DNA of 64,000 bases from a virus. Within the stretch, counting starts at the first letter, position 1, and every line of letters starts with the position of its first letter. The notes below the pieces were generated by a model. The model did no database searches. It had not been told where the DNA came from and was given only the letters and a program-made list of their open reading frames with translations. The position numbers were made by a program, and so were the translations under genes. The stretch is taken from positions 64,001 to 128,000 of the IMG/VR virus record IMGVR_UViG_3300043411_001575. One strand, given 5' to 3'. Positions 18,736 to 36,489 of the stretch are shown here, one piece after another.

Positions 18736-18877
18736 AAAGTGCGTGGGAAGATTTTTATTTTTTCTCTCACAAATGTTGAATCGAAGAACGAATGTAGTGC
18801 TTGCGTATAACGGCATCGGGCTTTGTGTCCGTTGGCGACTTAACCCACCAATGTTAAATTAAAAAACGAAACTTGAT

Positions 18878-19150: not shown

Positions 19151-19222
19151 CGTATCGTGGCTTTGTTGTCGTTGTGGCTATTTAAGACCAAACTTAACAA
19201 ATAATAACTAAAAATTAAATTT

Positions 19223-19621: not shown

Positions 19622-19850
19622 CCACTAACGGCATCCGTATAAGGGAAGTGCGAGGAACGAGCATTTACTTTATACGGTGTTAGCAAAGTGCGTTGGGCTG
19701 TGTGTTGGCTCGTTCCAAAACCATTTATTTTCTTTTTTTTGGGGAGGTTTTGAAAACTTTTTTACTAAAATACTTGCTAAATGACAATTTATATTTATCT
19801 TTGAACCATATTAACAATTAAAAAATAAAAACAATTAAAAAATAAAAACA

Positions 19851-20036
19851 ATGACAAAATTCGGAACAACAACTTGCCAATTTTACAACGGAACAGATTC
19901 AGTAACCGTAAATTCATCACTATTCAGAACCATTAGAGGTTGGGCTTCTACTGGTATTCCAAAAGATGCTATTAAAGGGGGAAGAAAGGTTTACGTTGCT
20001 AAAACAACTCTTGAACGCATTAAAAAAATTGCTTAA
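19851..20036 (+). CDS. Small cassette protein
   Basis: Lies between promoter and HTH gene. Confidence 0.6.
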   Translation: MTKFGTTTCQFYNGTDSVTVNSSLFRTIRGWASTGIPKDAIKGGRKVYVAKTTLERIKKIA

Positions 20037-20221
20037 TGAGAATTTCTGTAACTGATTATGCAAAACAGCTTGGTGTAACTCGTCAAGCTGTTTTGTTACA
20101 GATTAAAGAAAAAAGGTTGCCTAATAATGTTAAGTCTGAAAAAATTGGCAACACTTACTCTTTAACTGTGGGTGGGCAAAAAAAGAATAAAAATGCTTCC
20201 AATAAACTACAATCGAAGTAG
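20036..20221 (+). CDS. Small HTH regulator, copy 2
   Basis: SVTDYAKQLGVTRQAVLLQIKEKRLP. Confidence 0.8.
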   Translation: MRISVTDYAKQLGVTRQAVLLQIKEKRLPNNVKSEKIGNTYSLTVGGQKKNKNASNKLQSK

Positions 20222-20313
20222 TATCGTAGCAATGGGGCATAACGGTTTCGGGCTTGGCGAAGTGGCTGAACTCGAAGCTAAATAGGATTACTAAACTTTA
20301 AAATTAAAAACGA

Positions 20314-21135
20314 ATGTTAGATAGAATTACTGAACAGCCATTTTGCCAAACCCGTGTTATGTGCAGGGCGGTTGATAATCTTGAACTCCTTTTGTCGCAG
20401 CCTGATGAAAGTGTAGATTTGATTTATTGCGATATACTTTACGGAACAGGTAGAAATTTCAGTGAATATCAGGACTTGAAACCAATTAGAAGTGAGATTG
20501 AAAGCCACTACCTACCACGTTTTATCGAAATGAAACGAGTCTTAAAACAAAGCGGCACTATATACATTCATACGGGAGTAAACACTTCCCATTGGATTAG
20601 AAGTTTAATGGATGATGTTTTTGGGTATAATAATTTTCAAAATGAAATTATATGGTACTACAAAAATTCCGCATTGAAAGCTAAGTCAAATAAATTTAGG
20701 CAGAATACAGATACTATACTTTACTATGTAAAAGAAAAGGGTAAACATATTTGGAATGATGTTTACGAAAAGTGTAAACCTTATAAAAACTCAAAGCATA
20801 AATTTAATCCAATAACAAAAAAAGCTGAAAGGCAGAGAAATGAAAGTGGTAGAATTGAATACTTTATGGTAGATGAAAGGAAGTGCGATAACCTAATTCA
20901 GATAAATGCTTTAAATAGTAGTGAAAAGGTTGGTTACCCTACTCAAAAACCAAAGGAACTAATAAGCCGTTTTGTTTTAGCTTCTACGAATGAAGGGGAT
21001 GTAGTGGCTGATTATTATTTAGGTAGTGGCACAACCGCAGTAGTTTGTAAAGAACTAAACCGAAATTTTATAGGTTGCGACATTAATCCAAAGGCTATTG
21101 AAATAACAAATGCTCGTTTAGATGCAGTTTCGTAG
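20314..21135 (+). CDS. DNA methyltransferase, beta class, atypical DILY motif IV
   Basis: CDILY, NEIIWYY, YPTQKP, DYYLGSGTT. Confidence 0.85.
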   Translation: MLDRITEQPFCQTRVMCRAVDNLELLLSQPDESVDLIYCDILYGTGRNFSEYQDLKPIRSEIESHYLPRFIEMKRVLKQSGTIYIHTGVNTSHWIRSLMDDVFGYNNFQNEIIWYYKNSALKAKSNKFRQNTDTILYYVKEKGKHIWNDVYEKCKPYKNSKHKFNPITKKAERQRNESGRIEYFMVDERKCDNLIQINALNSSEKVGYPTQKPKELISRFVLASTNEGDVVADYYLGSGTTAVVCKELNRNFIGCDINPKAIEITNARLDAVS

Positions 21136-21412
21136 CCTTGCGCATAACGGTCGAGTATTGGCGAAGAAGCGGATTTATACCACCAAAGCCGATACGAAGC
21201 ACTACACTTGATTGACCTACAAATGTTCATACGAAGCACCGAAACCGCTTTTTTGCCAATACTTTGTTAGTGGCTGATGCGGATTTTTAGCACTCATTTT
21301 TAGTCAGTTAGAAAATATTTTGAAAATAGTTGAAAATAAATTTGGTTTGTATTGTTTTTGTATATACATTTGCATTACAATAATTAAGTAAAACAATTTA
21401 AAAACAAACAAA

Positions 21413-21820
21413 ATGGAAAAGCAAGTAAAAACAAACACATTGATAGCTGAATTTATGGGCTATGAAACTATCCCTTATAATGGAAACAAAAATGTTCCAA
21501 TTTATAATGGCAATAAGTATGCTAAAACAGTAGGTGAACAAAAAGCCTTATGGGGTGGATTAGATTTACAATTCACTGGAAGGTTTACGGAAAGAGTAAA
21601 CTACCCATTTGATACAGACTTTAATTATTTAATACCTGTTATTAAAAGAATAGAAGAGCAAGGGTATGTAGTAGCTATTAAAGGTATAAGCTACCAAGTT
21701 TATAAAGTTATGGATGAACAAAACCCTATTATAAGTTTAGTTTGTGGGGATTTATCTAAAAAAACAGAAATGACTTGTGATTTAGTTACATCGTTTATTG
21801 AACAACTTAATAATAACTAA
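21413..21820 (+). CDS. Cassette hypothetical phage protein
   Basis: NTLIAEFMG; promoter TACATTTG at 21365-21372. Confidence 0.65.
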   Translation: MEKQVKTNTLIAEFMGYETIPYNGNKNVPIYNGNKYAKTVGEQKALWGGLDLQFTGRFTERVNYPFDTDFNYLIPVIKRIEEQGYVVAIKGISYQVYKVMDEQNPIISLVCGDLSKKTEMTCDLVTSFIEQLNNN

Positions 21821-21822
21821 TT

Positions 21823-22038
21823 ATGACTATCAAAAAATTTGACTACTCGAAAAGCACGGAGGATATATTTTACAAAATAATTTATCCTATTTATGCAAAG
21901 GAATTTTTATATGGCAATAGCTATGAAAACTTTGCTTTTACTGTATCAGCCAACTTTATATTAAACGCTCCGCAATGGGAATACATTTTGGAACATTGGG
22001 AACAAAAGGAAAGCATTTTAACATACGAAACCAAGTAA
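21823..22038 (+). CDS. Cassette hypothetical protein
   Basis: Operon-packed ORF. Confidence 0.6.
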   Translation: MTIKKFDYSKSTEDIFYKIIYPIYAKEFLYGNSYENFAFTVSANFILNAPQWEYILEHWEQKESILTYETK

Positions 22039-22039
22039 T

Positions 22040-22207
22040 ATGGAAAAGAAAAAACGAGATATAAGCCTACCTAAAAGGTTTAATTCAGAAGATGTAAAGA
22101 AGTGGCAAGAACAAGCCAATTTAACAACTGGTGGTAATCTTACCCTATGGATGGAAAACGCTTTAAATAACGCTGTAAAGAAGCAGAATGTCAAATCGAA
22201 GCAGTAA
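22040..22207 (+). CDS. Putative ribbon-helix-helix regulator (55 aa, not in ORF track)
   Basis: ISLPKRFNSEDVKKWQEQA..NLTLWMENALN. Confidence 0.5.
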   Translation: MEKKKRDISLPKRFNSEDVKKWQEQANLTTGGNLTLWMENALNNAVKKQNVKSKQ

Positions 22208-22422
22208 TGTAGCATTTGCCACTAACGGTTTGGTGTATGAGAAGGTTTGCTTAACTGAACTTTCAAATTACCACTAAACTTTATAACAAACTTTCTTATA
22301 CACCTTGTTATACACAGTACGGTTTATTAAGGTAAAATGTTAATACGAAGAACAGATAAAAACTTTTTAAAAATGTGCGATGGAAAAATTAATTTCAAAT
22401 ATTTATATATAAAGATAAAACT

Positions 22423-22728
22423 ATGAGCAAAGAAATGAGAAAATACATAGACACATTCAAAGGTAGAATGTTAAAAGAAAATGTTGAAGTTAATCAACAG
22501 AAATCAATTCAACATATCATCAATAATGAAATAGTTGATAGATTTGATACTGGCAATGTTTCAATTACAACTGCTATTGAAGCAGTTAAAATAGCATATC
22601 AAGAAATTATTGATATGATTGAATTGAACTTTGAAACTGCTGGTGAATTAGGTGGTGGAATAACAGAAGCACAATCTATAATTAACAGAATTGAAGAATT
22701 TAAAAAAAGAGCGAAGGAGAATTTTTAA
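22423..22728 (+). CDS. Cassette hypothetical protein
   Basis: Fills unit 22307-22781. Confidence 0.65.
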   Translation: MSKEMRKYIDTFKGRMLKENVEVNQQKSIQHIINNEIVDRFDTGNVSITTAIEAVKIAYQEIIDMIELNFETAGELGGGITEAQSIINRIEEFKKRAKENF

Positions 22729-22851
22729 AAGGTTTTTACACAGAACTATGATTGAAACATGAATGTAGTATTGTGTATAACGGTTTTGGGCTTGGCGAAG
22801 TGGCTGAACCCGATGCTAAATAGAATTACTAAACTTTAAAATTAAAAACGA

Positions 22852-23619
22852 ATGATTGATAGAATTACCGAACAGCCATTTTGCCAAACCCGTGTTAGTG
22901 GCAGTACTTTTGTGAACGCTGATTGCTTTGATGTTTTTCCTTTTATTGAGGATAAATCAATAGATGCTATTATTTGCGACCTGCCTTATGGAACGACTAT
23001 TTTGAATTGGGATAAAATTTTACCTATTACAGAATTATGGAAACATTATAATCGTATTTTAAAAGATAATGGAGTGGTAGTTTTGTTTGGTGCTGAACCA
23101 TTTTCGACTATGTTAAGAAGTAGTAATATTTTGAATTATAAATATGATTGGATTTGGCAAAAAACAAGACCTTCATTATTCCAACACGCAAACAAAAGAC
23201 CAATGAAAGACCACGAAAATATTATGGTATTTTATAAAAAGCAGCCGACTTACAACCAAGAACTAAAAGAACTTGAAAAGCCAAATAAAAGATGGCGAAA
23301 AAATAAAATGGGTGCTTTTTTAGAAAATGGTTGCAATGATATTGAAAGCAAACAAACCAAGACAGGATTTAATAGGCAAATTTTAACCTATGCAATGCAC
23401 AATGTAGGAATGGAACATAAAACACAAAAGCCGATTGAACTTTTGGAATACCTTGTAAAAACATACACCAACGAAAACGATATGGTTTTAGACAATACAA
23501 TGGGTTCTGGAACAACAAATTTGGCTTGTATCAAATTAAATCGCAAGTCAATAGGAATAGAAAAGGAAAAACAATATTACGATGTCGCTGTTCGGCGTGC
23601 TTTGGAGTATTGCCACTAA
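22852..23619 (+). CDS. DNA methyltransferase, beta class
   Basis: CDLPY, HKTQKP, LDNTMGSGTT. Confidence 0.9.
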   Translation: MIDRITEQPFCQTRVSGSTFVNADCFDVFPFIEDKSIDAIICDLPYGTTILNWDKILPITELWKHYNRILKDNGVVVLFGAEPFSTMLRSSNILNYKYDWIWQKTRPSLFQHANKRPMKDHENIMVFYKKQPTYNQELKELEKPNKRWRKNKMGAFLENGCNDIESKQTKTGFNRQILTYAMHNVGMEHKTQKPIELLEYLVKTYTNENDMVLDNTMGSGTTNLACIKLNRKSIGIEKEKQYYDVAVRRALEYCH

Positions 23620-23723
23620 CGGTGTGGGCTATGAGAAGTAAAACCCCTTTTTGTGCGGTGGATTTTGTAAATTTGTAATTATTAACTAAAACCTTTCGGA
23701 GTATAGGCAACCGAGTAAATGTT

Positions 23724-23954
23724 ATGGCAAAAAAATATCTTATCAAATCGTGGAAAACAAATTCTGCATTTACAAAAACAGGAAAGTTTTATCAAAAACC
23801 ATTGGAAACAGATAGTAAATCAGAAGCTAATGAAATAGCCAAAGATTTGATTAAAAAACACAAAGTATATGCTGTTGAAATAGCAGTTTTTGATGAAAAA
23901 GCTAATGGATATACAAGAGCCGAATTGATTGGCAACTTTCCAAACAAAAAGTAG
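23724..23954 (+). CDS. Small protein carried in a hairpin loop
   Basis: Inside hairpin 23621-23998 with its own TAAATTTG element. Confidence 0.65.
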   Translation: MAKKYLIKSWKTNSAFTKTGKFYQKPLETDSKSEANEIAKDLIKKHKVYAVEIAVFDEKANGYTRAELIGNFPNKK

Positions 23955-24129
23955 TTTTTACAGGTGCTGTGGCAGGGGTTTTATTTCTTATAGCCCCTGT
24001 TATGGCATCGTTTTAATGTGCCATAACGGCTCTAATAAACACAGTGCAGCGACCTACTGCACTTTAATAGCAGACGAAACGCCAACTCGCTGCATTGGGT
24101 TTATTTATTGTTGGCAAATTCGTTCATAA

Positions 24130-24312
24130 ATGGAATTAACAGTAAAACAGATTCAAGAAAAGCAAAAGCAGCTTAAACGAGAGCTGCGTGACAAACTCAA
24201 CCAATTTGAGCAAGAAACAGGATTGAAAGTAACGGGCGAAATTCATTATGGATATACAGAAGAAAAAGACCAACATTGGTTGAGTTTAAAGTACTCGAAC
24301 CCATTTATGTAA
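24130..24312 (+). CDS. Small cassette protein
   Basis: Fills unit 24110-24323. Confidence 0.6.
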   Translation: MELTVKQIQEKQKQLKRELRDKLNQFEQETGLKVTGEIHYGYTEEKDQHWLSLKYSNPFM

Positions 24313-24374
24313 TGTTTGCCAACGGTTGAGGCTAACCGCACGTAGCGGAATTTGAAACACTTAATTATCAAAAT

Positions 24375-24677
24375 ATGACAGACTTAAATACAAGCACCGA
24401 AGTAACGCAACCCACTGAACCCGCTATTGCGGTTGAGCCTGTGTTAGCACCAGTATTTGTTTATGAATTTCTTTATAATTCTGATTGTTGCGAAGGTGCA
24501 GCATCAACTGTAAGCATTCACAAAACAAAGAAAGGTGCTGAAATGGCAATGGAGTTTCATAAAAACGAAAAACTAAAAGAGTGGGAAAAAGAATGCAAAG
24601 AATATCCACCTACAAAAGAATATCCGTTTGATTTTGACCAATGGTGGGGAGTTCGTGAATGCGAGTTGCTTCCTTAA
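24375..24677 (+). CDS. Cassette hypothetical protein
   Basis: Starts in the hairpin loop. Confidence 0.65.
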   Translation: MTDLNTSTEVTQPTEPAIAVEPVLAPVFVYEFLYNSDCCEGAASTVSIHKTKKGAEMAMEFHKNEKLKEWEKECKEYPPTKEYPFDFDQWWGVRECELLP

Positions 24678-24903
24678 TATTGGTGCTAACGTTTACGGCT
24701 ATATTCTCGTGCCGTTTTTCACGGCATGGAATTATAGCCGATGTTATGCAAGTGCGTTGGCTTGTGGGTGGCACGTTTCAAAACTCTTTTTCTTATTTTT
24801 TTTAGAGAGGGATTTTTTTATTTTCTTTATTACTTGCTAATTGACAATTTATGTTTATCTTTGTAGCAGATAATTAATACTAACAATTTAAAATCAAAAC
24901 AAA

Positions 24904-25188
24904 ATGAGCAAAGCAGGATTAACAAAATTTTTAGCAAAGTTCCCAGATGACACTAAAAGCTGGGCTAAAGCAACAGATGAAGTTCGTGATATTGCACGAA
25001 CAGCAAAAGAATATTACAATGAAATAGAAGGCAAAGATATTCAACCTTGCGATTTCCGTTCAATGAAAACGCCTTCCGAATGGAACACAAAAGGTAAAAG
25101 CTACATTTTTAAAGTGTATGATAAAATGAGTGCAAAAACAAAAACAGAGTTTAACGGCTATTTGAAAAGCCACTTTAATATTAAATAA
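24904..25188 (+). CDS. Small cassette protein
   Basis: Lies between promoter and HTH gene. Confidence 0.65.
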   Translation: MSKAGLTKFLAKFPDDTKSWAKATDEVRDIARTAKEYYNEIEGKDIQPCDFRSMKTPSEWNTKGKSYIFKVYDKMSAKTKTEFNGYLKSHFNIK

Positions 25189-25189
25189 A

Positions 25190-25348
25190 ATGGAGCAACT
25201 ATCTGTAACCGATTATGCAAAATTGCTTGGCGTAACTCGTCAGGCGATTTTGTTACAGATTAAAGAAAAAAGGTTGCCGAAAAATGTTACAGCAAAAAAA
25301 ATCGGGAACACTTATCTACTATCTGTGCGTAGGCAAAAAAGAAAATAA
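25190..25348 (+). CDS. Small HTH regulator, copy 3
   Basis: MEQLSVTDYAKLLGVTRQAILLQIKEKRLP. Confidence 0.8.
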   Translation: MEQLSVTDYAKLLGVTRQAILLQIKEKRLPKNVTAKKIGNTYLLSVRRQKRK

Positions 25349-25474
25349 ATGGTTTTGGAATGTTTGCTAACGGTGTGGGCTATGAGAAGTAAAACCCCTT
25401 TTTGTGCGGTGGATTTTGTAAATTTGTAATTATTAACTAAAACCTTTCGGAGTATAGGAAACCGAAATAAAGTT

Positions 25475-25720
25475 ATGGCAAAATCAGTAGCAATTTTTCA
25501 AGAAAAATCATCTAAAACAGGAAGTTTTATTGGTGATAAAATTTATTATTACAAAACAAAAAATCCTAATTGGTGGTTTGTTTCAGTTGGCAAAGCATAT
25601 TTAGGGACTGTGCCTGAATACGGAAGCGGAACAGGGCAATTTAAAAACAAGAAACAATACCCGACTATTGCTTCATTGGAAAAATACCACAAAGAAGATA
25701 ATATTCACAGAGTAGATTAA
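25475..25720 (+). CDS. Small cassette protein
   Basis: Same leader as the ORF at 23724. Confidence 0.65.
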   Translation: MAKSVAIFQEKSSKTGSFIGDKIYYYKTKNPNWWFVSVGKAYLGTVPEYGSGTGQFKNKKQYPTIASLEKYHKEDNIHRVD

Positions 25721-25730
25721 TGTTATTTAT

Positions 25731-25765
25731 GTAGTGGCTATGCCTTATTGTAGCCACTACTTTTT
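25731..25765 (+). terminator. Intrinsic terminator
   Basis: GTAGTGGCTA/TAGCCACTAC stem plus TTTTT. Confidence 0.6.
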
Positions 25766-25996
25766 AATCTTTTCACAGTTTTGAAAAAACTGAAAGAGTG
25801 CGTGGGCTTTTTCTTTTTTAATAATTTAATTGCCACTAACGTTGAAGGGCTTGGCGAAGGTGGGCTTGTAGGATGCTCAATTTTAGCAGAATGTTTCTGC
25901 CCACTTTTGCCAAACCCGTGTTATATGAAGTGCCGACTTATTTACGTTGAAGCCAAATTGGAACACTAAACAGAAAAACAAAAAGAAAAAAAAGGG

Positions 25997-26809
25997 ATGG
26001 AATTAAATAAAATACATTTAGGAGATTGTTTAGAAGTAATGAAAACTTTGCCAAATGAAAGCATTGATTGTATTGTTACTTCACCGCCATATTGGTTACA
26101 AAGAGATTACGGATGGGATGGACAATGGGGTATGGAAGAAACGTTTTATGAGTATTTGGATAAATTGTTTTTAATGATGGATGAAGCAAAACGAATATTG
26201 AAAAACGATGGAACTATTTTTGTAAATATTGGCGATGGCTATGCAAGAACAGGTGGAAAATCATTAGGTAAAAAACAACCAAACGCTTTATTGTATGCAA
26301 CACAAGAAGGGATAAGGGGCGGAAATAACAAGGGAGTTGCAGGAATACAAGATAAAACATTACTACAAATACCATATCGTTTTTCTATTGGCTGTATTGA
26401 TAGAGGATGGATTTTGCGAAACAATATAATTTGGTTTAAAAGAAACGCAATGCCCGAAAGTGTAAAGGACAGATTTACAAAATCACACGAAGTAATATTT
26501 ATGTTTTCTAAAAACAAAGAATACTTTTTTGACGAAAAATTTGTAACACAAGATGTTTGGGATATTCCTTTAACTCCTAACGGCACAAAACATATAGCAT
26601 CTTACAATACTGATTTAATTGGCAGACCTATTGTTTGCGGTTGCAGAAAGGGTGGAATAGTATTAGATATGTTTTGCGGAGCAGGAACAACAGGAATAAG
26701 AGCATTAGAACTTGGGAGAAACTTTATAGGGATAGATGGTAAAAAGGAATACGTTGATATGGCACAACAAAGAATTAATGATATTGTATCACAACCACAA
26801 TTATTTTAA
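25997..26809 (+). CDS. DNA methyltransferase, beta class (SPPY)
   Basis: TSPPY, LDMFCGAGTT. Confidence 0.9.
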   Translation: MELNKIHLGDCLEVMKTLPNESIDCIVTSPPYWLQRDYGWDGQWGMEETFYEYLDKLFLMMDEAKRILKNDGTIFVNIGDGYARTGGKSLGKKQPNALLYATQEGIRGGNNKGVAGIQDKTLLQIPYRFSIGCIDRGWILRNNIIWFKRNAMPESVKDRFTKSHEVIFMFSKNKEYFFDEKFVTQDVWDIPLTPNGTKHIASYNTDLIGRPIVCGCRKGGIVLDMFCGAGTTGIRALELGRNFIGIDGKKEYVDMAQQRINDIVSQPQLF

Positions 26810-27059
26810 AAGTGCGGTGGCTTTTTTCTTTTTGTTTTTCCTTCACGGAACTTCAATTGGAAACGGTCAGCAAGGCATTTCATATAACGACCGTGTGTTT
26901 ATGTCAGGTTTTGCTTTTCGCAAAACTTGCATTAAACACAATGTTAGCAAAGTGCGTTGGCTTGTGGGTGGCTCGTTGTATTTAATAAAAAAGAAAAAAA
27001 GGAAGGCGTGTGTTGGCTATTTTAATTTGTAAATTTGTATAAACATAAATCATATAAAA

Positions 27060-27896
27060 ATGAGTAGATATAATAATAGTGGAGATATTGAAGAAGTTTT
27101 ACCGAAAGAGGTATTACAGAAAATAAAAGACAAATTCAAAGCAAAGAGTTTTAAAAAACTTGGTTCAGGTAGATATGGAAGTGCTTTTAAAATAAGTCCA
27201 AAAAAGGTTTTGAAAATCACAAAAGATTTGAAAGAGTATGAATATGCTAAAAAAATTGAAGGACTGAAAAATAAACATATTGCTGATGTTTATGAAACAT
27301 ATCACTTTGAATATGGCGACACAAAGTATGCTGTAATAATTAAAGAATATTGCAATATTGGAGAAGCATATTTTGATAAACTAATAGATAGTTTTGCTGA
27401 ATACACGGGAAACGAAATGTCATTATCATTTGTTTCATCTGAATTTTTGCACGGAGATTTATCAAAGGCGGTTTTTGATAACTACTTTAAAAAGTATAAG
27501 CAAAATCAAGGTTACGCAACAGGATTTGCAGATGATTGGCAAGAAATGATAATGGAATTAAAGAACAAAAAAATCTATGTTAAAGATTTTAACGGTGCTA
27601 ATATTGGAACGAAGCCGAGTAATAATAACATCTGCATCATTGAACTTGGATTAGGTTATTGGGAAACCATAAAATTACCTGATGCAGACAAAATAATATT
27701 AAAGGAAGGTGGAACTATAATTGGAAATTTTGAACCGCTTGGCTCTGCAAAAGAATTAGGAATTAAACCGAAGATTGAGGGACACGATATGATTGCCATT
27801 TGTGATTGTGGAGAAAAATTTAGTTACCAAAACTCAAAGAAGAATATTGTTTGGGAATGTCCTGAATGTAAAAGAAGAAATAAGATTGTAGAATGA
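27060..27896 (+). CDS. Protein-kinase-like protein with C-terminal Zn ribbon
   Basis: LGSGRYGSAF, VLKIT, DFNGANIG; CDCG..CPEC. Confidence 0.65.
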   Translation: MSRYNNSGDIEEVLPKEVLQKIKDKFKAKSFKKLGSGRYGSAFKISPKKVLKITKDLKEYEYAKKIEGLKNKHIADVYETYHFEYGDTKYAVIIKEYCNIGEAYFDKLIDSFAEYTGNEMSLSFVSSEFLHGDLSKAVFDNYFKKYKQNQGYATGFADDWQEMIMELKNKKIYVKDFNGANIGTKPSNNNICIIELGLGYWETIKLPDADKIILKEGGTIIGNFEPLGSAKELGIKPKIEGHDMIAICDCGEKFSYQNSKKNIVWECPECKRRNKIVE

Positions 27897-28063
27897 TTTT
27901 AAACCTTTTCACAATTTTGAAAAAATTGAAGGGAGCGTGGGCTTTTTCTTTTTTATTAAATACAATGTTTGCTAACGCATATCGGCTAAACGCAGTATTT
28001 AAAAACTTTTGCGAGGGAAATTCGTAAATTTGACAATTATAAACAATTAAAAAACAAAACAAA

Positions 28064-28240
28064 ATGGCAACAGAAAAAAAGTATGCGGTTTTCGCTACAT
28101 TCAAAACAACAGGTAGAGAAAGTGAAATGACACTACCTATGACAAAAAAAGAAGCTGAAAAGGCTTTATCTGCTTTAAAGGAAAAATCAGCCGAGTTCAA
28201 AAAATTGAACTTTAAAGGATTTAAGATAAAGGCAGTTTAA
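28064..28240 (+). CDS. Small protein carried in a hairpin loop (58 aa, not in ORF track)
   Basis: MATEKKYAVF...KIKAV* inside 27977-28292. Confidence 0.6.
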   Translation: MATEKKYAVFATFKTTGRESEMTLPMTKKEAEKALSALKEKSAEFKKLNFKGFKIKAV

Positions 28241-28540
28241 TTATCTCATTAGTGCGGTGGGAAAGTTTTTAAATATTGTCGTTTTAGCCGTTGTTATGCG
28301 AAGGTGTGGCAATTCCAAAATTTCAAATTATAGACAAAACTTTCTTGCCACACTTTTGCATAACGTTCCGAGTATTGGAGCAGTGCGGATTTAAACCACA
28401 AATGTTGATATAAAAAATGAAACTTAAATAAACCGATAACCTTTATTAGAAGCACTAAACCCGCATTGCTTACAATACTGTGTTATAGGGAGTGTTTTTA
28501 AAATTTTAGCGGGGATAATTACTAAATTTACAATAAAAAA

Positions 28541-28930
28541 ATGTCAGCAAAATCATATCAAGCACCTGCCAATAAAAAAGTTTATAGAGCAGAAAAAAAA
28601 GGAGTAAAAGGAAACTGGTTTGCATTAAGTAAAGATGATGCAATAGGTTACGGAAATTTTGGTTACAAAATTGTTTCAAAATCAATAGGAGGCAAGAAGT
28701 TTTTATATGCTTCTGAATTAGAAGATGGCGGAACTTATTTTGATACCATAATCAAAAAATTCCCTAAACTTTTCAAAATAAATAAAGGTATTTTATGGAA
28801 TGACTATGAATTGAAAGTATCTCCAAGTGAACTATGGAGAGAGTGTGAAGCATTTTTAAAAAAAGAAGGTTATTCTGGAATATTTACAGGGAAGAAACTT
28901 TCTATTGATTATGAACTTTTTTTGTTTTAG
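28541..28930 (+). CDS. Cassette protein, possible ADP-ribosyltransferase-like fold
   Basis: KVYRA, WFA..DAIGY, LKKEGYSGI. Confidence 0.4.
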   Translation: MSAKSYQAPANKKVYRAEKKGVKGNWFALSKDDAIGYGNFGYKIVSKSIGGKKFLYASELEDGGTYFDTIIKKFPKLFKINKGILWNDYELKVSPSELWRECEAFLKKEGYSGIFTGKKLSIDYELFLF

Positions 28931-29057
28931 GTGCGTGGGAAAAATTTTAAAAACATTTGCTATAACGTATATCGGCTAAATGCAGTATTTAAAAACTTTT
29001 GCGTGGGAATTTAATTCGTAAATTTGATAATTATAAACCAATAAAAAACAAAATAAA

Positions 29058-29249
29058 ATGGCACAAACAAAAAAAGAGAAACGAGTAATTGCAAGAGCAA
29101 GATACATCGTTGAAGTATTCGCAAAAAGTCATTATGATTCAAGAGATTTGTTTAAGAAAATGACTAAAGAAGAAAAGAAAATAACCATTGATTACATCGA
29201 GAGAATTGGCGAAAGTGCCGTTAGTAGGTATTTATATCAATGGTATTAA
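29058..29249 (+). CDS. Small protein carried in a hairpin loop
   Basis: Inside 28967-29299. Confidence 0.6.
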   Translation: MAQTKKEKRVIARARYIVEVFAKSHYDSRDLFKKMTKEEKKITIDYIERIGESAVSRYLYQWY

Positions 29250-29602
29250 TTCTCTCATTAGTGCGGTGGGAAAGTTTTTAAATATTGAGTTTAGCCGTTG
29301 TTATGCGAAGGTGTGGCAACTGCAAAATTTCAAATTATAGACAAAACTTTCTTGCCACACTTTTGCATAACGTTTTGCAGCTAAACGCTGATTTTGTTCT
29401 TCACAAAATTTGCGATTTAGGTGCTGTTACCTGCTGATGCGGTTTCATAGTACAAATGCTGATTTGGAACATAAAACTAAGGGTTTAATTTTTTTCTTTT
29501 TTTTAGTGGAGGAAAACTTTTTCTTTTTTACTTGCTAATTGACAATTTATGTTTATCTTTGTAGCATATAATTTAACAATAACAATTTAAAACAAAAACA
29601 AA

Positions 29603-29896
29603 ATGGCTGACATCGCATTACCAAAATCAAACCTTTACCTTGAAGGTAGCGGACTTGACACAAACGGAAACAAAGTTGTAAAACTTGGAATTTCAAGTTT
29701 ACCGAAAAACTTTAGTATTCAAACTAATGGCAATTTGCCGAAAACTGGAAGTATCCTTCGTGGCTTGAAAACCAAAAAGGATATGGAAAGCGTGAGTAAA
29801 TCCGATTTGCAAATAATTTCAAAAGAAGTTGTTGCATACATTAAGGAGTTTGGCTCAAAACTGCAAAGAGAAAAATTAAGAACTTACAACTCTTAA
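29603..29896 (+). CDS. Small cassette protein
   Basis: Lies between promoter and HTH gene. Confidence 0.65.
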   Translation: MADIALPKSNLYLEGSGLDTNGNKVVKLGISSLPKNFSIQTNGNLPKTGSILRGLKTKKDMESVSKSDLQIISKEVVAYIKEFGSKLQREKLRTYNS

Positions 29897-29898
29897 TT

Positions 29899-30063
29899 AT
29901 GGAGCAACTATCTGTAACCGATTATGCAAAATTGCTTGGTGTAACTCGCCAAGCAATTTTGTTACAGATAAAAGAAAAAAGGTTGCCGAAAAATGTTACA
30001 GTTAAAAAAATTGGTAATACTTACTCCTTATCTGTGCGTGGGCAAAAAAAAGAAAAAAAATAA
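29899..30063 (+). CDS. Small HTH regulator, copy 4
   Basis: MEQLSVTDYAKLLGVTRQAILLQIKEKRLP. Confidence 0.8.
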   Translation: MEQLSVTDYAKLLGVTRQAILLQIKEKRLPKNVTVKKIGNTYSLSVRGQKKEKK

Positions 30064-30277
30064 ACCCGACTTCTACCACAAATGTTCATTCGGAGCAACA
30101 AAGTAGCATTTGCAGGTAACGGACGAGGCTATGAGCAGTTGAGCGTAGCCTGTGCGATGGAAAGAATTGCTTATAGCCTGTGTTATGCAAGTGCGTTGGC
30201 TTGTGGGTGGCTCGTTTCAAAACTCTTTTTCTTATTTTTTAGGGAGGGATTTTTATTTTCTTTTTTAACAACAAAAA

Positions 30278-30484
30278 ATGGCTGATTCAATCGGTGGCTT
30301 AGAAGGCACAAAAACTAAATTTTTCATAGATGTAAAAGTTCCTATCAGAGCAGGGATGGAGTTTGGCACAAAGAATTATAAAATAAGAACAATCGGATAT
30401 GAGGTTTTTCGACAATACTTTGATACTAAAGAAAAGGATATGCAAGTAGGTAGGCAAAGAATTGAAAGAAAAATAAATAACTAA
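30278..30484 (+). CDS. Small cassette protein
   Basis: ORF in unit 30182-30918. Confidence 0.5.
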   Translation: MADSIGGLEGTKTKFFIDVKVPIRAGMEFGTKNYKIRTIGYEVFRQYFDTKEKDMQVGRQRIERKINN

Positions 30485-30562
30485 CTTTTACTTGCTAATT
30501 GACAAATTATGTTTATCTTTGTAGCAGATAATTTAATATTAACAATTTAAAAACAAAACAAA

Positions 30563-30733
30563 ATGGCAAAAAGTAGTTATTACAAGTACGCAGTTGTAGC
30601 GGTAAACACAAAAACAGGTGAAGAAAGTTTAGTATGCAAAGTTCGTGCTGCTGGGGACTTAAACAACATTTTACACGGATTAGAAAAAGCAGTAGGAAGC
30701 TCTCCTATTAAATACAAATCTAAAAAACTGTAA
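30563..30733 (+). CDS. Small cassette protein (56 aa, not in ORF track)
   Basis: MAKSSYYKYAVV...KSKKL* after the promoter. Confidence 0.6.
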   Translation: MAKSSYYKYAVVAVNTKTGEESLVCKVRAAGDLNNILHGLEKAVGSSPIKYKSKKL

Positions 30734-30735
30734 AA

Positions 30736-30957
30736 ATGGAACTATCTGTAACAGAATATGCAAAATCGCTTGGCGTAACTCGTCAGGCGATTTTGTTACA
30801 GATTAAGGAAAAAAGGTTGCCTAAAAATGTTACGGTTAAAAAAATTGGTAATACTTATTCTTTATCTGTGCGAGGGCAAAAAAAAAATAAGAAAAAGAGT
30901 TTTGAAATGTTGCATAACGTTATCAGGCTTGGCGAAGTGCCGCTACTCGAAACTTAA
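30736..30957 (+). CDS. Small HTH regulator, copy 5 (reads through into the next hairpin)
   Basis: MELSVTEYAKSLGVTRQAILLQIKEKRLP. Confidence 0.75.
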   Translation: MELSVTEYAKSLGVTRQAILLQIKEKRLPKNVTVKKIGNTYSLSVRGQKKNKKKSFEMLHNVIRLGEVPLLET

Positions 30958-31051
30958 ATTTTAGCACTAAACTATCCTGCGGCATTTTGCCAAACCCGTG
31001 TTATGGGATAGTTTTAAAAACCTTTTAGGGTGGGCATTAAAAAACGAAATA

Positions 31052-31510
31052 ATGATAATAGCAATTGATTTTGACGGAACTTGCGTAACACACGAATTTC
31101 CCAAAGTGGGCAAAGACATTGGTGCTGTGCCTGTATTGAAAGAGTTGGTTAAAAATAACCACCAATTAGTTTTGTTTACAATGAGAAGTGATATAGTTAA
31201 TCCAACTGGCGAGGATAACGAATTGCACCTTGAAAGTGGGAACTATTTAACTGATGCAATTGAATGGTTTAAACAAAACGAAATACCGCTTTATGGAATA
31301 CAAACCAACCCGACACAGCACACTTGGACTACAAGCCCAAAAGCATACGCACAACTTTACATTGATGATGCTGCTTTAGGTTGCCCACTTTTGGTTGACA
31401 TTGTAAAAGATGGTGACGAAAGCATTAAGCAAGTTGGACGACCTTATGTTAATTGGGAGAAGGTAAAAGAAATGCTAATTGATAAAGGAATTATTGATGA
31501 TGAGGACTAA
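31052..31510 (+). CDS. HAD-superfamily phosphatase-like protein
   Basis: IAIDFDGT, LFTMR, K..A.LYIDD. Confidence 0.8.
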   Translation: MIIAIDFDGTCVTHEFPKVGKDIGAVPVLKELVKNNHQLVLFTMRSDIVNPTGEDNELHLESGNYLTDAIEWFKQNEIPLYGIQTNPTQHTWTTSPKAYAQLYIDDAALGCPLLVDIVKDGDESIKQVGRPYVNWEKVKEMLIDKGIIDDED

Positions 31511-31645
31511 CCCGTGCGGTGGGAAAAGGTTTTTAAAATTTCCCATAACGGTTCGTGGCTATAAGAAGTAAAACCCATTTTTGAGCGGTGGAAAATTTCG
31601 TATCTTTGTAACGCAATATTGCAAATAAATATAATACTTTAAAAA

Positions 31646-31858
31646 ATGGGAAAAAAAATTGCTTACGTTATTATGGGTGGCGATGATTATGTAACAGAAT
31701 CTTCATCATCAAGGAACAATGGATATGCTTTTACGCATAATCTACAAGGTGCAACTTTTTTTGATTCCAAAGAAAAAGCAGATAATTGTATTAAAAACAA
31801 AAATCTCGAATTTCATCTTGGAAGAAAAGTAAAAGCAAAAAAAGTTTCATTGGTTTAA
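31646..31858 (+). CDS. Small protein carried in a hairpin loop
   Basis: Inside 31550-31901 with its own TATCTTTG element. Confidence 0.6.
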   Translation: MGKKIAYVIMGGDDYVTESSSSRNNGYAFTHNLQGATFFDSKEKADNCIKNKNLEFHLGRKVKAKKVSLV

Positions 31859-32084
31859 TCTAAGCGGTGCGTTGGCAGGGGTTTTATTTCTTATAGCCCC
31901 TGTTATAGCATCGTTTTAATGTGCTATAACGGTTTGCGTATATGAGAAGTGGCACTTGCACGAACTTAAAATTTAGCACAAATGTTTCTGTGCCATTTCT
32001 TATATACGCTGTTATAGCCAGTAGGGATTTTTAGCACAAACGTTTAATCGAAGCACTAAAAGAAAAATTAAAAAAAGAGAAGGG

Positions 32085-32840
32085 ATGGAAATAAATAAAA
32101 TATACACAGGAGATAATTTGGAATTGCTTAAAACATTCCCTGATAACACTATTGATTTGATTGTTACCTCACCAAATTATAATAATTGGAGAAACAGAAG
32201 AACACAAGCAAGTAGGAAAGATTTTTGGGAACGAACCAATATAACTTATGATAATTGCACAGACAAAGAAGATGATGAAACATATGAAGCAAGGCAAATA
32301 GAAATAATAAATGAGATGGTAAGAGTTCTAAAACCAACTGGAACAATTTGCTACAACCACAAAGATAGAATATTTGAATTTGAAGTAAAATCACCTTTGG
32401 AATGGATTTTAAAGACAAATGCAAAATACAGACAGAGAATTACATGGGATAGATGTGGTATGCAAGCGTATAATCCTGTTAGATTTTATAGGGTTGATGA
32501 AGATATTTATATACTTGGAAAAGAAGCAAAGGGATTTACTTGGAATAAAGAAGCTGCAAAGTATTTAAGTATTTGGCGAATTGTTCCAAACAAAAATATT
32601 TACGGACATAATGCTACATTTCCAGAAGAACTTGTAAAAAGATGTGTTGAAGCATTTACCAATGAAGGAGATTTGGTTTTAGACCCATACAACGGAACTG
32701 GAACAACAACCAAAGTAGCTTATGAGATGAAAAGAAATTTTATCGGAATTGATAATTCTGAAAAATATAATGAAATAGCTGAAACTCGTATTAAAGAGTG
32801 CGGTGGGTCTTTTTTTAATTTTTCTAACGAAAATGATTAA
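32085..32840 (+). CDS. DNA methyltransferase, beta class (SPNY)
   Basis: TSPNY, HNATFP, LDPYNGTGTT. Confidence 0.9.
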   Translation: MEINKIYTGDNLELLKTFPDNTIDLIVTSPNYNNWRNRRTQASRKDFWERTNITYDNCTDKEDDETYEARQIEIINEMVRVLKPTGTICYNHKDRIFEFEVKSPLEWILKTNAKYRQRITWDRCGMQAYNPVRFYRVDEDIYILGKEAKGFTWNKEAAKYLSIWRIVPNKNIYGHNATFPEELVKRCVEAFTNEGDLVLDPYNGTGTTTKVAYEMKRNFIGIDNSEKYNEIAETRIKECGGSFFNFSNEND

Positions 32841-33079
32841 TCGAAGCACTTCACCCCTATTGGCTATAACGGTGGCGATTGGCGAAGTAAAAGCATTTCA
32901 CTGCTGCTGATGGTTATCACTATGCTCAATGGCTTTTATTTTGCCAATTGCGTGTTAGCTGCTGTTTTTTTTCTCTTTGATTGTCAGTACTTTAGAAAAT
33001 AATTTAAAAATATCTTTGAAAATGTTTGCAGATTCAAAATAATGTTGTATCTTTGTTCTACAATTAAAAACAAAATAAA

Positions 33080-33277
33080 ATGACAAATTTGAATGAAATA
33101 GAAGTAACAGTAAAGGGTAACGATAGTATCACAGGTAGCGAAAGTTGGGTATCTAATTTAGAAAACTTAAAAAGTTGGGAACTCACAAATGATGAGATAA
33201 ACGAAATAATAGAGGGCAAAACAGTTAAATGTATATCTCCAAATGGTAGAAGAATTATATGGATAACAAAAAAGTAA
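33080..33277 (+). CDS. Small cassette protein
   Basis: Follows a TATCTTTG promoter element. Confidence 0.6.
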   Translation: MTNLNEIEVTVKGNDSITGSESWVSNLENLKSWELTNDEINEIIEGKTVKCISPNGRRIIWITKK

Positions 33278-33423
33278 AAAGAGGTGGTAAACGCAAAAAT
33301 GCTGGTGCTAAACCTAAATACTCGGAGCTAACTAAAACGGTTGCCTTTCGCTGTCCATTGTCAAAGGTTGATGAACTGAAAATAGTTGTCAAGTCTAAAC
33401 TTTCGGAGTGGTCGGTAAAATAG
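33259..33423 (+). CDS. RGG-motif / ribbon-helix-helix-like regulator (54 aa, not in ORF track)
   Basis: RGGKRKNAGAKPKY..TKTVAFRCP. Confidence 0.6.
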   Translation: MDNKKVKRGGKRKNAGAKPKYSELTKTVAFRCPLSKVDELKIVVKSKLSEWSVK

Positions 33424-33542
33424 CAGCTAACGGTTTGCAGCTAACAGAAGTGGCTGCTTGTAAGAACTTCTGAATTAAAAACAAATGCTTTGCAGCCATT
33501 TTTGTTAGGTGCTGTTATAAGCTGTAAAATAAAATTTGAGCG

Positions 33543-33716
33543 ATGGACACATACTTAAAATATTTAGATACAGATGAAATGAGGCTCATTATGGATGTGC
33601 AAAAAACACTTCCACAAAAAGGCTTTACTTACATAAGAGATGAAAAGAAAATAGGCAGAAATGAGCCTTGTAAATGCGGAAGCAATAGGAAGTACAAAAA
33701 ATGCTGTGGTGCGTAG
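33543..33716 (+). CDS. SEC-C metal-binding motif mini-protein (57 aa, not in ORF track)
   Basis: [22 protein letters not shown]. Confidence 0.75.
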
Positions 33717-33848
33717 GCAATTTTATTTTATTGCTTATAACGTAGCGGGGCTTTGCGTAGTAGCCCTTAGTAGAAACTTAAAATTAACCACGACACTTGA
33801 TAGGGCTATTACGCAAAACCCTTGTTATGTGCCGTTTTTATTCGGATT

Positions 33849-34403
33849 ATGAAAAAGTATCAAATAATATATTCAGACCCAGCGTGGCGATTTGGTAATT
33901 CTGTTTATCAAGACAACAATAGAGATAACAGACATTTGCAAGACCAATATCAAACAATGACCATAGAACAATTAAAAGAATTACCACTTGCAAATATTTC
34001 TGCTGATGATTGTGCTTTGTTTTTATGGACAACAGACTTTCATTTACCTTTTTGTTTTGAATTATTTAAAGCGTGGGGTTTCAAATATAGAACTATTGCT
34101 TTTGTATGGAAAAAAGTAACTAAAAACGGTAAAACTTGTGCAAACTTGGGAGCGTGGACTATGAAAAATACAGAAATATGTTTATTGGCTACAAAAGGAA
34201 ATATGTTTAATAAAAGGAAAGTGAAGAATATATTTCAATTAGTTGAAGCAGAAAGAACTAAGCATAGTAAAAAACCACAAGAGGTAAGGGATAGGATAGA
34301 AAAACTATTTGGAGAATGTGAAAGACTTGAAATGTTTGCTCGTGAAAAGCACGAAGGCTGGGATGTTTGGGGAAATGAAGTTGAGAGTAGTGTCACTCTT
34401 TAA
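33849..34403 (+). CDS. MT-A70 family adenine methyltransferase
   Basis: YSDPAW, LFLWTT, HSKKP, LEMFAR, WGNE. Confidence 0.9.
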   Translation: MKKYQIIYSDPAWRFGNSVYQDNNRDNRHLQDQYQTMTIEQLKELPLANISADDCALFLWTTDFHLPFCFELFKAWGFKYRTIAFVWKKVTKNGKTCANLGAWTMKNTEICLLATKGNMFNKRKVKNIFQLVEAERTKHSKKPQEVRDRIEKLFGECERLEMFAREKHEGWDVWGNEVESSVTL

Positions 34404-34602
34404 AATGGCACATAACGGTTTGCAGCTAAACGCTGATTTTGTTCTTCACAAAATTTGCGATTTAGGTGCTGTTATGTATCAGTTTATTTTTTACTTTTTT
34501 GCGTTGGCTTTCAATTAGTTACACAATTTAACAAAAATAATCTTGAAATTGTTTGCAGATTCAAAATATAGCCGTATATTTGTATCAACAAAACGAAACA
34601 AC

Positions 34603-35004
34603 ATGGAAACAATTGAAAAAAAAATATTAGGATTCACAGAAGAAATAACAGTTTGTGATTGCTGTGGTAAGGCTGATTTAAAAGGAACTTACGCTATTGA
34701 TTGGGAAGGTACAATTGCATATTACGGAAGCGTTTGTGCTTTTAAAGTGCATGGTGCTACTATTGAAGAGCAAAAGGAAGTGAAGAAAGCATACACTAAA
34801 AGAATGAAAGCGACTGAAAAATTAGCACAAATGGAAGCTGAATACAATGGAACACAATATGCTTTAGTAAAAATGTTTCGTTTTGTTGAAGAGAAGAAAT
34901 TGGATGTAATGGCTTTCATTAATAAATACGGAAAAAAATGTGATGAGAACGATTATTACATTGCTTACGAAATTGGACACGTTGTAAAATGTATAGACAA
35001 ATGA
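34603..35004 (+). CDS. Cassette hypothetical protein with Cys motifs
   Basis: CDCCGK..YGSVCA; own promoter. Confidence 0.65.
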   Translation: METIEKKILGFTEEITVCDCCGKADLKGTYAIDWEGTIAYYGSVCAFKVHGATIEEQKEVKKAYTKRMKATEKLAQMEAEYNGTQYALVKMFRFVEEKKLDVMAFINKYGKKCDENDYYIAYEIGHVVKCIDK

Positions 35005-35297
35005 AAGAATGTACAATGTGCGCTTTAAAAGAGCCTGAATTTAAAAAGTGCATTTTTAGCGATTGCCCTAATGGTGTAAATTTTGTAACCTGCGATTGTG
35101 GAGAGAAAATTTACAACACGGATGGCAAAAAAGCGAAGTGCAAAAAATGCAAACCACATGGAGGTAAAAGGCTAAATGCAGGACGAAAAAGCCAATACAA
35201 AGAAGAAACGCAAACAATTTCTTTCCGTGTACCAAAATCACTAATTGAACCGATTACAAAATACGTCAAACGTGCGCTGGCAAAAAGTAAAAAATAA
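35001..35297 (+). CDS. Zn-finger + GG-motif/RHH-like regulator
   Basis: CxxC pairs; HGGKRLNAGRK..TISFRVP. Confidence 0.6.
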   Translation: MKECTMCALKEPEFKKCIFSDCPNGVNFVTCDCGEKIYNTDGKKAKCKKCKPHGGKRLNAGRKSQYKEETQTISFRVPKSLIEPITKYVKRALAKSKK

Positions 35298-35495
35298 ATT
35301 GTACATAACGTTTTGCGTATATGAGAAGTGGCACTTGCACAAACTTGAAATTTAGCACAAATGTTTCTGTGCCATTTCTTATATACGCTGTTATGTGTAG
35401 TTGCGGTTTAATAGCAGGGAGTTCAATTTGAAATGAGATACTTTTTCTTTTCTTTTTTGAGCGATGGCAAAAATAAATTTGAAAAATTTAAAAAT

Positions 35496-36308
35496 ATGAT
35501 TGATATAAACAAGAATTACAATGAAAGTAATTTAGAAACAATGGCAAAGATGCCTGATTGCTTTGTAGATTTAACAGTAACATCTCCACCTTATGATGGA
35601 TTGCGAACTTATAATGGATATTCATTTCCATTTGAAGATATTGCAAAGGAGTTGTTTAGAATTACAAAAGATGGTGGCGTATTAGTTTGGGTTATTTCAG
35701 ATGCTACCGTTCAAGGAAATGAAAGCGGAACATCATTTAAACAAGCCTTATATTTCAAAGAGATTGGTTTTAATTTGCACGACACAATGATTTGGATTAA
35801 AGACGGTGGTGGTGCAGTAGGAAGCAATAAGTGTTACACACAAAACTTTGAATATATGTTTGTGTTTTCAAAAGGAAAAATAAATACTACAAATCTAATT
35901 TATGATAAACCAAACGCTTCTTTTGGTAAAGATAAAAGCGGAGTAGGTAGAAGATTGGTAACTGGTGAACACAAAATAGAAAAGCGTAAACCAAGTGCCG
36001 AATTTAGTAGAAGAAACAACTATTGGTATATCGCACCACAAAAAGGCGAACACCCTGCGGTATTCCCAGAAGCACTTGCAAATGACCATATTTTAAGTTG
36101 GAGTAATGAGAATGACTTAATTTATGACCCATTTATGGGAAGTGGTACAACCGCTAAAATGAGTATTCTAAATAACAGAAATTGGATAGGCAGTGAATTA
36201 TCCTCTGAATACTGTGATATGATTGTGCAACGAATTAAAAAAGCGTTGGAAGAAAAAAGAAAAGAAAAAGATTTAATAGCAAACTCTTTATTTGGAAACG
36301 ACTTTTAG
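35496..36308 (+). CDS. DNA methyltransferase, beta class (SPPY)
   Basis: TSPPY, HPAVFP, YDPFMGSGTT. Confidence 0.9.
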   Translation: MIDINKNYNESNLETMAKMPDCFVDLTVTSPPYDGLRTYNGYSFPFEDIAKELFRITKDGGVLVWVISDATVQGNESGTSFKQALYFKEIGFNLHDTMIWIKDGGGAVGSNKCYTQNFEYMFVFSKGKINTTNLIYDKPNASFGKDKSGVGRRLVTGEHKIEKRKPSAEFSRRNNYWYIAPQKGEHPAVFPEALANDHILSWSNENDLIYDPFMGSGTTAKMSILNNRNWIGSELSSEYCDMIVQRIKKALEEKRKEKDLIANSLFGNDF

Positions 36309-36489
36309 CAATTACACATAACGTTTTGCGGCTTTGCGTTCGGTTTTTTGCCTTATCCGAATGTCCAAATTTAGCACAATGTTTAAAGGCAAAAACTGAC
36401 GCAAAACCGATGTTATAAGCTGGCTGCGGTTTATTAAACGAAAAGCTAAATACGAAGCACTAAAGAAAAGAATTTAAAAAAAGGAAGGG

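Follow-up and report, generated by a model that had tools for sequence, protein, structure and literature searches.

Can a gene cassette carry its gene inside the loop of its own recombination hairpin? This question is raised by a stretch of viral DNA of 64,000 nucleotides (nt), hereafter the window, which corresponds to bases 64001-128000 of the 169,658-bp IMG/VR virus record IMGVR_UViG_3300043411_001575 (completeness estimate 82%). The window contains an array of attC-like hairpins, four of which are very long, enclose a promoter and an open reading frame (ORF) and are each followed by a tiny hairpin of 29 or 72 bp. A first-pass annotation had interpreted these four units as inside-out cassettes, whose mobile form would be a single-stranded dumbbell with a central core and two loops, either of which can take cargo. 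According to the analysis reported here, the four units are probably intact cassettes of a phage-borne, integron-like system, with the cargo in the loop of the attC-like hairpin and a minimal hairpin in place of the gene body.

Throughout the text the attC-like hairpin is termed I-module (inner), and the stretch from GTTA to the next TAAC, that is the gene body, is termed O-module (outer). Sites were located by a gapped inverted-repeat search framed by AAC and GTT. An ungapped scan was unsuitable since bulges hid two of the four units, so a gapped arm search was used instead, and a plain genome-wide scan for GTT..AAC stems gave too much noise for use. The array and the four units are as follows.

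13778..51655, + strand: whole array, 51 attC-like hairpins alternating with bodies closed by GTTA..TAAC, all genes on +.
23618..24027, + strand: unit 1 (family a), TAAC at 23617-23620, TAAATTTG at 23668-23675, ORF of 76 aa at 23724-23954, 29-bp O hairpin at 23999-24027; arms 23626-23648 / 23974-23996 (+), 23 nt, 91% complementary.
27974..28364, + strand: unit 2 (family b), AAC at 27974-27976, TAAATTTG at 28025-28032, ORF of 58 aa at 28064-28240, 72-bp O hairpin at 28293-28364; arms 27983-28010 / 28261-28290 (+).
28964..29371, + strand: unit 3 (family b), AAC at 28964-28966, TAAATTTG at 29019-29026, ORF of 63 aa at 29058-29249, 72-bp O hairpin at 29300-29371; arms 28973-29000 / 29270-29297 (+), 27-28 nt, 89%.
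31547..31930, + strand: unit 4 (family a), AAC at 31547-31549, TATCTTTG at 31601-31608, ORF of 70 aa at 31646-31858, 29-bp O hairpin at 31902-31930; arms 31557-31576 / 31879-31898 (+), 20 nt, 95%.

All coordinates and sequences of the first-pass annotation were found in the window, and the four stems enclosing a promoter and an ORF were borne out, as was the hairpin nature of the 29-bp and 72-bp pieces that follow them (the 72-bp modules have a 20-bp stem with 90% complementarity). The stems of the units start 5-7 nt past TAAC and end 2-3 nt short of GTTA, which is the spacing at the 47 ordinary sites of the array, and their arms share the words TATGAGAAG / TTCTTATA with ordinary I stems. Each loop contains a TAnnTTTG word, the established -7 element of Bacteroidota promoters, 30-55 nt upstream of an ATG-initiated ORF of 58-76 aa. 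Features of a miniature inverted-repeat element or small transposon were not found: there is no duplication at the unit arms, which are always placed at fixed spacing inside TAAC..GTTA and differ between units.

The long hairpins and the tiny bodies are strictly coupled. The I-modules of the four units measure 322-384 nt and all others 55-128 nt; O-modules shorter than 100 bp occur only four times in the array, each directly behind one of the four long hairpins, the remaining ones being at least 214 nt long. By our arithmetic on 50 curated pairs of a hairpin and its next body, such a coincidence would arise by chance once in 230,300. In an automatic parse, in which one unit was mis-registered, all three long hairpins were followed by a tiny O-module (Fisher p = 9e-5); the site at 36731-37105 proposed by this parse lacks TAAC, is a false positive and was left out of the counts.

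Both hairpin kinds follow a fixed scheme. Each of the 51 I-modules, which lie between 13778 and 50893, consists of TAAC, 4-7 unpaired nt (beginning with G nearly always), a 15-28-bp stem, a loop, the return stem, 1-4 nt and GTT(A/G). The start of the O-module pairs with its own end through a median stem of 15 bp versus 5 bp for the site's own flanks or random partners, so that two kinds of hairpin alternate strictly along the array. Within the O stems positions 1-4 are invariant. Positions 5-9 vary among cassettes, yet Watson-Crick pairs account for 233 of their 250 cells. The 3' arm has T at position 11, which lies 11 nt upstream of the C of TAAC, in 50 of 50 cassettes; this T mostly faces G, giving an invariant wobble or mismatch. 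The compensatory change of G/C to A/T between the two 29-bp modules of the window, noticed in the first-pass annotation, is real, and over 47 copies in other contigs the same pair was A-T in 22, G-C in 20, G.T in four and A.C in one.

Where a cassette begins and ends was derived from breaks in homology. One I-module is present in six copies, which are homologous from TAACG onwards, past GTTA and into the next gene, but have different upstream flanks in every case. When the array was compared with itself by BLAST, the left ends of homology fell on AAC 29 times and on GTT six times; 14 blocks crossed GTT, and the five which crossed AAC did so by only ~20 nt. Against 50 other viral contigs AAC was crossed by one of 132 blocks and GTT by 39. 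As AAC is almost never crossed and GTT often, the unit is one I-module plus the following O-module, bounded by the + strand AAC, and this parse agrees with the recombinase gene lying beyond the last TAAC and with the strand asymmetry described below.

These data bear directly on the classical reading of the locus, in which crossover takes place at G|TT. The long hairpin would then be an oversized attC of the upstream gene in a two-gene cassette, and the 29- or 72-bp piece would open an empty cassette having the next hairpin as its attC. The pairing of GTT with AAC across the body does not distinguish the readings, being expected of a classical circle too, and GTT ends do exist (six left and 18 right in the self-comparison; 17 and 28 against other contigs). 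Apart from the counts of crossed boundaries, however, the long I-module is coupled to the following O-module and not to the preceding one, and the two 29-bp pieces of the window precede unrelated hairpins. Furthermore, the homology between unit 1 and the ENA contig L058 (~95% identity over window 23618-24027) extends from TAAC to TAAC and both flanks are unrelated; L058 is a short contig in which no further hairpin was recognised behind the unit, and the pair that reads G-C in the 29-bp stem of the window is A-T there. In contigs L005/6/7/8/10 and L017, finally, the 29-bp hairpin closes the array; a recombinase gene begins 36-67 nt behind it and no hairpin intervenes, so that the 29-bp hairpin cannot begin a cassette whose hairpin lies downstream. 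On this counter-evidence the 29-bp unit was rejected as the start of an empty classical cassette, and the G|TT reading as a whole is largely refuted and most improbable. The proposal of the first-pass annotation that a hairpin moves together with its following short body held up, both in L058 and in the arrays of L005 and L017 that end on the 29-bp body.

The same design was encountered in many other viral contigs. The exact 29-bp unit is present in 46 of them and lies 1-3 nt behind a 3' arm wherever the upstream sequence suffices; the partner arm, itself behind TAAC, could be located 200-850 nt upstream in most contigs, and the stems involved are many and unrelated. The 72-bp unit recurs in four more contigs behind family-b arms, which enclose other ORFs of 65 and 107 aa, so that family-b frames hold four different ORFs. 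In total ~40 distinct gene-in-loop units were collected, with loop ORFs of 37-220 aa. After removal of the elements used as search seeds, an O-module of at most 130 nt followed a long I-module in six of six cases and a short one in three of 65 (p = 6e-7), and the long I-module showed no link with the preceding O-module. The three short-I exceptions and the element at about 3101-3176 of contig L045 are cassettes empty in both loops. Fully empty dumbbells thus exist, and either loop can take cargo, as had been suggested in the first-pass annotation; cargo resides in one loop or the other, never in both. As to architecture and unit, the earlier interpretation is mostly correct, the physical form that it assigns to the units being presumptive.

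Comparison of the sequences thereby shows the boundaries of the unit, the pairing of both stems (by covariation) and the mutual exclusion of cargo between the two loops, and equally the presence of one and the same unit in different neighbourhoods and of such units beside a recombinase gene in two other lineages. The recurrence of the gene-in-loop layout in dozens of other phage contigs argues for a real, mobile cassette design. Among 185,579 species genomes the 29-bp unit was met only in three short contigs of metagenome-assembled genomes; it is nearly absent from bacteria, and no bacterial reservoir of it was found in this set.

With respect to the cargo, relatives of the unit-1 ORF (ORF76) were found at 82-99% identity. 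One homologue (82% aa identity) lies at 2550-2783 of the phage-like contig L056, in an ordinary operon beside a NinG-family gene and lacking any hairpin frame; the similarity extends ~20 nt past the stop codon into the ribosome-binding site of the next gene. Between ORF76 and this operon homologue dN/dS amounts to 0.27, and by these comparisons the cargo of unit 1 is a real gene. A tblastn search of five loop ORFs against all collected loci returned self matches only.

The operon homologue also bears on the idea that the long hairpins are damaged or disabled sites, in which a gene and its promoter entered an ordinary loop by another route and the units no longer move. Besides the plain operon, this explanation can draw on the resemblance of the unit arms to ordinary I stems in their TATGAGAAG / TTCTTATA words and on the poor folding to be expected of long-range pairing. 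Disabled sites are, however, difficult to reconcile with ~40 different units in 46 contigs, with the same unit in different neighbourhoods (L058) and with units adjoining the recombinase gene in two lineages. Moreover, the arms are still 89-95% complementary and the tiny bodies remain strictly tied to the long hairpins, and we regard loss of mobility as distinctly improbable.

When the predicted circles were folded, each of the four cassettes gave two stems abutting the core. The circularised units reached -44 to -49 kcal/mol on the + strand, the - strand being weaker by 7-10 kcal/mol and mononucleotide shuffles giving -21 to -25 kcal/mol. The linear stretch 23606-24120 (515 nt) folded as three consecutive hairpins, namely the long I-module, the 29-nt O-module and the next I-module, with -72.1 kcal/mol (z = -3.9) on the + strand and -61.6 kcal/mol on the - strand. 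Throughout the array the + strand hairpin was more stable at 44 of 47 sites (p = 5e-9), and G.T exceeded A.C pairs by 75 versus 14 in I stems and by 53 versus 11 in O stems; folding of one strand, the + strand, is favoured.

The G.T pairs lie on the coding strand, which brings in an explanation devoid of site-specific recombination. The hairpins would act at the level of transcripts or regulation, as terminators or as processing or stabilising stems, and homologous recombination through conserved regulatory sequence would shuffle the units, in the manner reportedly proposed for the promoter-stem-loop cassettes of T4-type phages. Such a scenario is in line with conserved promoter-leader modules that precede different ORFs, with the existence of chimeric units and with the frames of families a and b, whose conservation ends at the ATG and resumes at the stop codon. 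In the four units, however, the promoter is situated between the arms; an RNA starting there holds the 3' arm only and is thus unable to form the stem. Irrespective of the homology around them, breakpoints coincide with a single 4-nt word; covariation is seen in the variable 5-nt core of the outer stems, and the array abuts a tyrosine recombinase in three lineages. Taken together, we consider a purely regulatory role of the hairpins unlikely.

The array end and the adjoining gene were annotated as follows.

51656..51703, + strand: candidate attI-like stretch from the last array TAAC to the recombinase start.
51676..52572, + strand: tyrosine recombinase, Xer-like, without the IntI-specific insert; the second ATG at 51704 is the likelier start.

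The last array TAAC (51652-51655) sits 49 nt upstream of the recombinase ATG, the corresponding distances being 67 nt in L005, whose recombinase is 44% identical to that of the window, and 36 nt in L017. The protein matches Phage_integrase, and its best NCBIfam family is archaeal XerA with 206 bits, below the cut-off of 220. Against the integron integrase model TIGR02249 it scored 155 bits (cut-off 265) in two pieces, which omit model positions 182-238, the IntI-specific insert. The closest solved structures are of the archaeal XerC-like/XerA type, and VchIntIA aligns only at a C-terminal stretch. As judged from these matches the recombinase is not IntI and falls outside the IntI clade. A search of viral contigs for the recombinase gave one close relative, L003, in which the array side is lost at the contig end.

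For the four units we propose the following mechanism. The recombination core would be the TAAC/GTTA box between the inner (I, attC-like) and the outer (O) hairpin, the latter comprising GTTA plus ~11 bp that pair with ~11 bp plus TAAC. On the + strand a cassette would extend from the C of one TAAC as far as the AA of the following one and so comprise one I-module and then one O-module. In ordinary cassettes the I loop is short, often with a promoter and a start codon, and the gene fills the O loop. The four units have the entire gene, together with its promoter, in the I loop, and their O-module is reduced to the conserved 29- or 72-bp hairpin. The + strand presumably folds as single-stranded DNA, and the adjacent Xer-like tyrosine recombinase may cut after AA in TAAC; such an action on folded DNA is an assumption modelled on IntI and on the way XerCD treats CTX phage DNA. 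The excised form would be a two-loop circle, which could integrate at the site next to the recombinase gene and be fixed by replication as in integrons. If the recombinase sees only the core and the two flanking stems, it would not matter which of the loops is large.

Several observations weigh against this proposal. In the linear array the long I stem pairs across 250-330 nt and should fold less readily than ordinary sites, and the G.T bias of the coding strand is also compatible with RNA structure. Immediately behind AAC, and on its own arm, there are 3-5 surplus unpaired bases, and the stems are mostly ungapped. The recombinase is no integron integrase by score and by its missing insert, and its activity on hairpins is an assumption by analogy. 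Furthermore, the I-modules at 35306-35395 and 38937-39026 share 100% identity along 90 nt, whereas the sequences flanking them on either side are unrelated; identical I-modules with different bodies mean that GTT is also some kind of breakpoint, or that the hairpins are homogenised. Finally, a chimeric unit reveals that homologous recombination shuffles parts too:

25367..25840, + strand: half unit with TAAC, the family-a 5' arm, the promoter leader and an ORF of 81 aa, without 3' arm and without GTTA.

Its arm and promoter leader are 96% identical to 23616-23732 of unit 1, and over its final 79 nt it agrees at 99% with the end of another body (48953-49031). Identical I-modules before different bodies, the half unit and the frames of families a and b kept up to the ATG and again from the stop codon appear to show a second layer of shuffling.

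A further thought concerns the origin of the cassettes. The empty two-hairpin element, in which the I- and the O-module are both capped by CGTTTTAATG as in L045, may be an acceptor from which cassettes arise, a gene loaded into one loop or the other giving an ordinary or an inside-out cassette. We regard this step as speculative and rather doubtful; if true, it would expose the mechanism of cassette genesis, the main unsolved question of integron biology, and would explain the precisely swapped ORFs in conserved frames. The CGTTTTAATG loop caps empty hairpins of both kinds, the loop being constant and the stems varied, as in examples read by eye in L045 (3101-3176), L028 (~1186, ~1487), L021 (~11619), L018 (~5658) and L019 (~3830).

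The surroundings of the units show the ordinary form of the array:

24025..24112, + strand: ordinary I-module directly 3' of unit 1, opening the next cassette.
28482..28966, + strand: normal body preceding unit 3, with an ORF of 129 aa and a 26-bp outer stem.
31000..31549, + strand: normal body preceding unit 4, with an ORF of 170 aa and a 26-27-bp outer stem.

Some ordinary cassettes have their start codon within the I loop. The methyltransferase ORF at 22852-23619 has its ATG within the loop, and its reading frame continues across the 3' arm and GTTA; consequently the recombination core would be translated. In-loop starts of methyltransferases were found in the window at 22852-22896, 13818-13892 and 50849-50893, and at 2769 in L063 (MN812240.1, Flavobacterium phage vB_FspS_tooticki6-1), a cultured 37-kb siphovirus; the GenBank annotation of Flavobacterium phage tooticki6-1 uses the same in-loop start. 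At 150-3650 this phage carries a short run of the same TAAC..GTTA hairpins among four methyltransferase genes, including the six-copy I-module of the window, and cultured Flavobacterium phages (Muminvirus) share the I-module and the methyltransferase cassettes.

A G-rich word, GTGCGKTGG (variants GCGTGGG and GCGAGGG), borders the cargo on both sides, forming a direct repeat immediately inward of the arms, and is also located at the starts and ends of normal bodies (23655, 25406, 28011, 28254, 29001, 29263, 31585, 31869 and ~20 more positions); the array accounts for 31 of the 33 copies on the + strand of the genome. A small helix-turn-helix gene, whose sequence resembles excisionases, is present in at least seven copies (16919-17070, 20035-20190, 25190-25348, 29899-30063, 30736-30957, 39417-39580 and 47228-47390), always as the final ORF of multi-gene cassettes, and chimeric bodies change partner inside this gene. 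The window has a G+C content of ~31%, with nearly all long ORFs on the + strand, and contains a permuted tmRNA gene (807-961, - strand; Rfam RF04321, 51.9 bits), located in a phage record. Outside the window the record codes for a tail-fibre-like protein, RtcB, an HNH endonuclease and proteins of phage-only families.

Compared with integrons (PMC2727003, PMC5027507), the system shares a promiscuous cassette array beside a tyrosine recombinase, and its 51 sites fit the description of imperfect hairpins with an AAC...GTT core, an unpaired spacer, a second stem and a variable terminal loop. In addition, the two ends of a body are paired, as they are in a circular cassette, and under the parse into I plus following O the polarity of the array relative to the recombinase is classical. 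In recombined attC sites the bottom strand is cut in its AAC and carries the G.T excess (Nivina 2016, PMC5027507); the AAC breakpoints found here, which are breaks in homology, likewise fall on the G.T-richer and better-folding strand. The differences concern the recombinase (Xer-like, without the IntI insert), the outer stems (~15 bp here versus 7 bp), the unpaired surplus (on the AAC arm here, whereas the extrahelical bases of attC are on the opposite arm; PMC5027507) and the replicon, which is a phage. The folding strand carries all genes, an orientation antisense to that of classical cassettes, which would make promoters of their own necessary; such elements were confirmed for the four units and for a few further cassettes. 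Above all, the terminal loop holds the gene in the four units and in ~40 elsewhere, whereas that of attC is non-coding, and the bodies of the four measure 29 or 72 bp. Literature searches found no report of a gene inside an attC terminal loop. The earlier statement that this is not the classical cassette model was thus overstated as far as the folded site is concerned, with its paired AAC/GTT box, unpaired spacer, second stem and AAC breakpoint on the G.T-rich strand; it holds for the placement of the gene in the terminal loop, for outer stems of 15 bp, for genes in antisense orientation and for a recombinase other than IntI.

Clusters of attC sites without an integrase (CALINs) are known from virulent phages, some of them of Bacteroidota (Polaribacter), and include DNA methyltransferase cassettes (Qi et al. 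2023, PMC9892861). The likeness to our array lies in phage-borne attC-like sites, methyltransferase cassettes and, in part, Bacteroidota phages. Compared by description, the CALINs differ in being clusters of at least two sites detected by integron software, for which no neighbouring recombinase, large array or gene-in-loop cassette was described (PMC9892861).

Two further systems share single traits with the array in the window. In the integration of CTX phage at dif, XerCD acts on a hairpin of one DNA strand by a single strand exchange, which is resolved by replication. A Xer-type recombinase and a one-strand hairpin substrate (here assumed by analogy) would be common to both, but CTX uses a single site for the whole phage genome and has no cassette array. 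The T4-type promoter-stem-loop cassettes, reportedly described by Arbiol et al. in 2010, are said to consist of small genes with their own promoter and conserved stem-loops which are shuffled in hyperplastic regions and for which mini-circles have been proposed. Small promoter-bearing phage genes flanked by conserved stem-loops are thus a shared trait; the T4-type cassettes differ by homologous recombination at repeats and have no AAC/GTT core, no adjoining recombinase and no paired gene-enclosing stems.

In view of these comparisons the gene-in-loop cassette with a tiny hairpin body appears, on sequence evidence, to be a new variation on the integron cassette. In integron biology the gene is assumed to lie between recombination hairpins, whose loop counts as a dispensable spacer; in the present array the core would lie between two stems, with natural cassettes having the gene in either loop or in neither. 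As regards substrate geometry, the recombinase may need the core and the two stems only, and the empty cassette of 74 nt (L045) would offer a minimal substrate for biochemistry. The natural series of cassettes that are empty, loaded in I, loaded in O or straddling bears on the question of cassette origin. The cargo of such phage cassette systems includes many orphan DNA methyltransferases, which are likely anti-restriction genes, and cassette systems of this kind would extend beyond the IntI clade and into phages.

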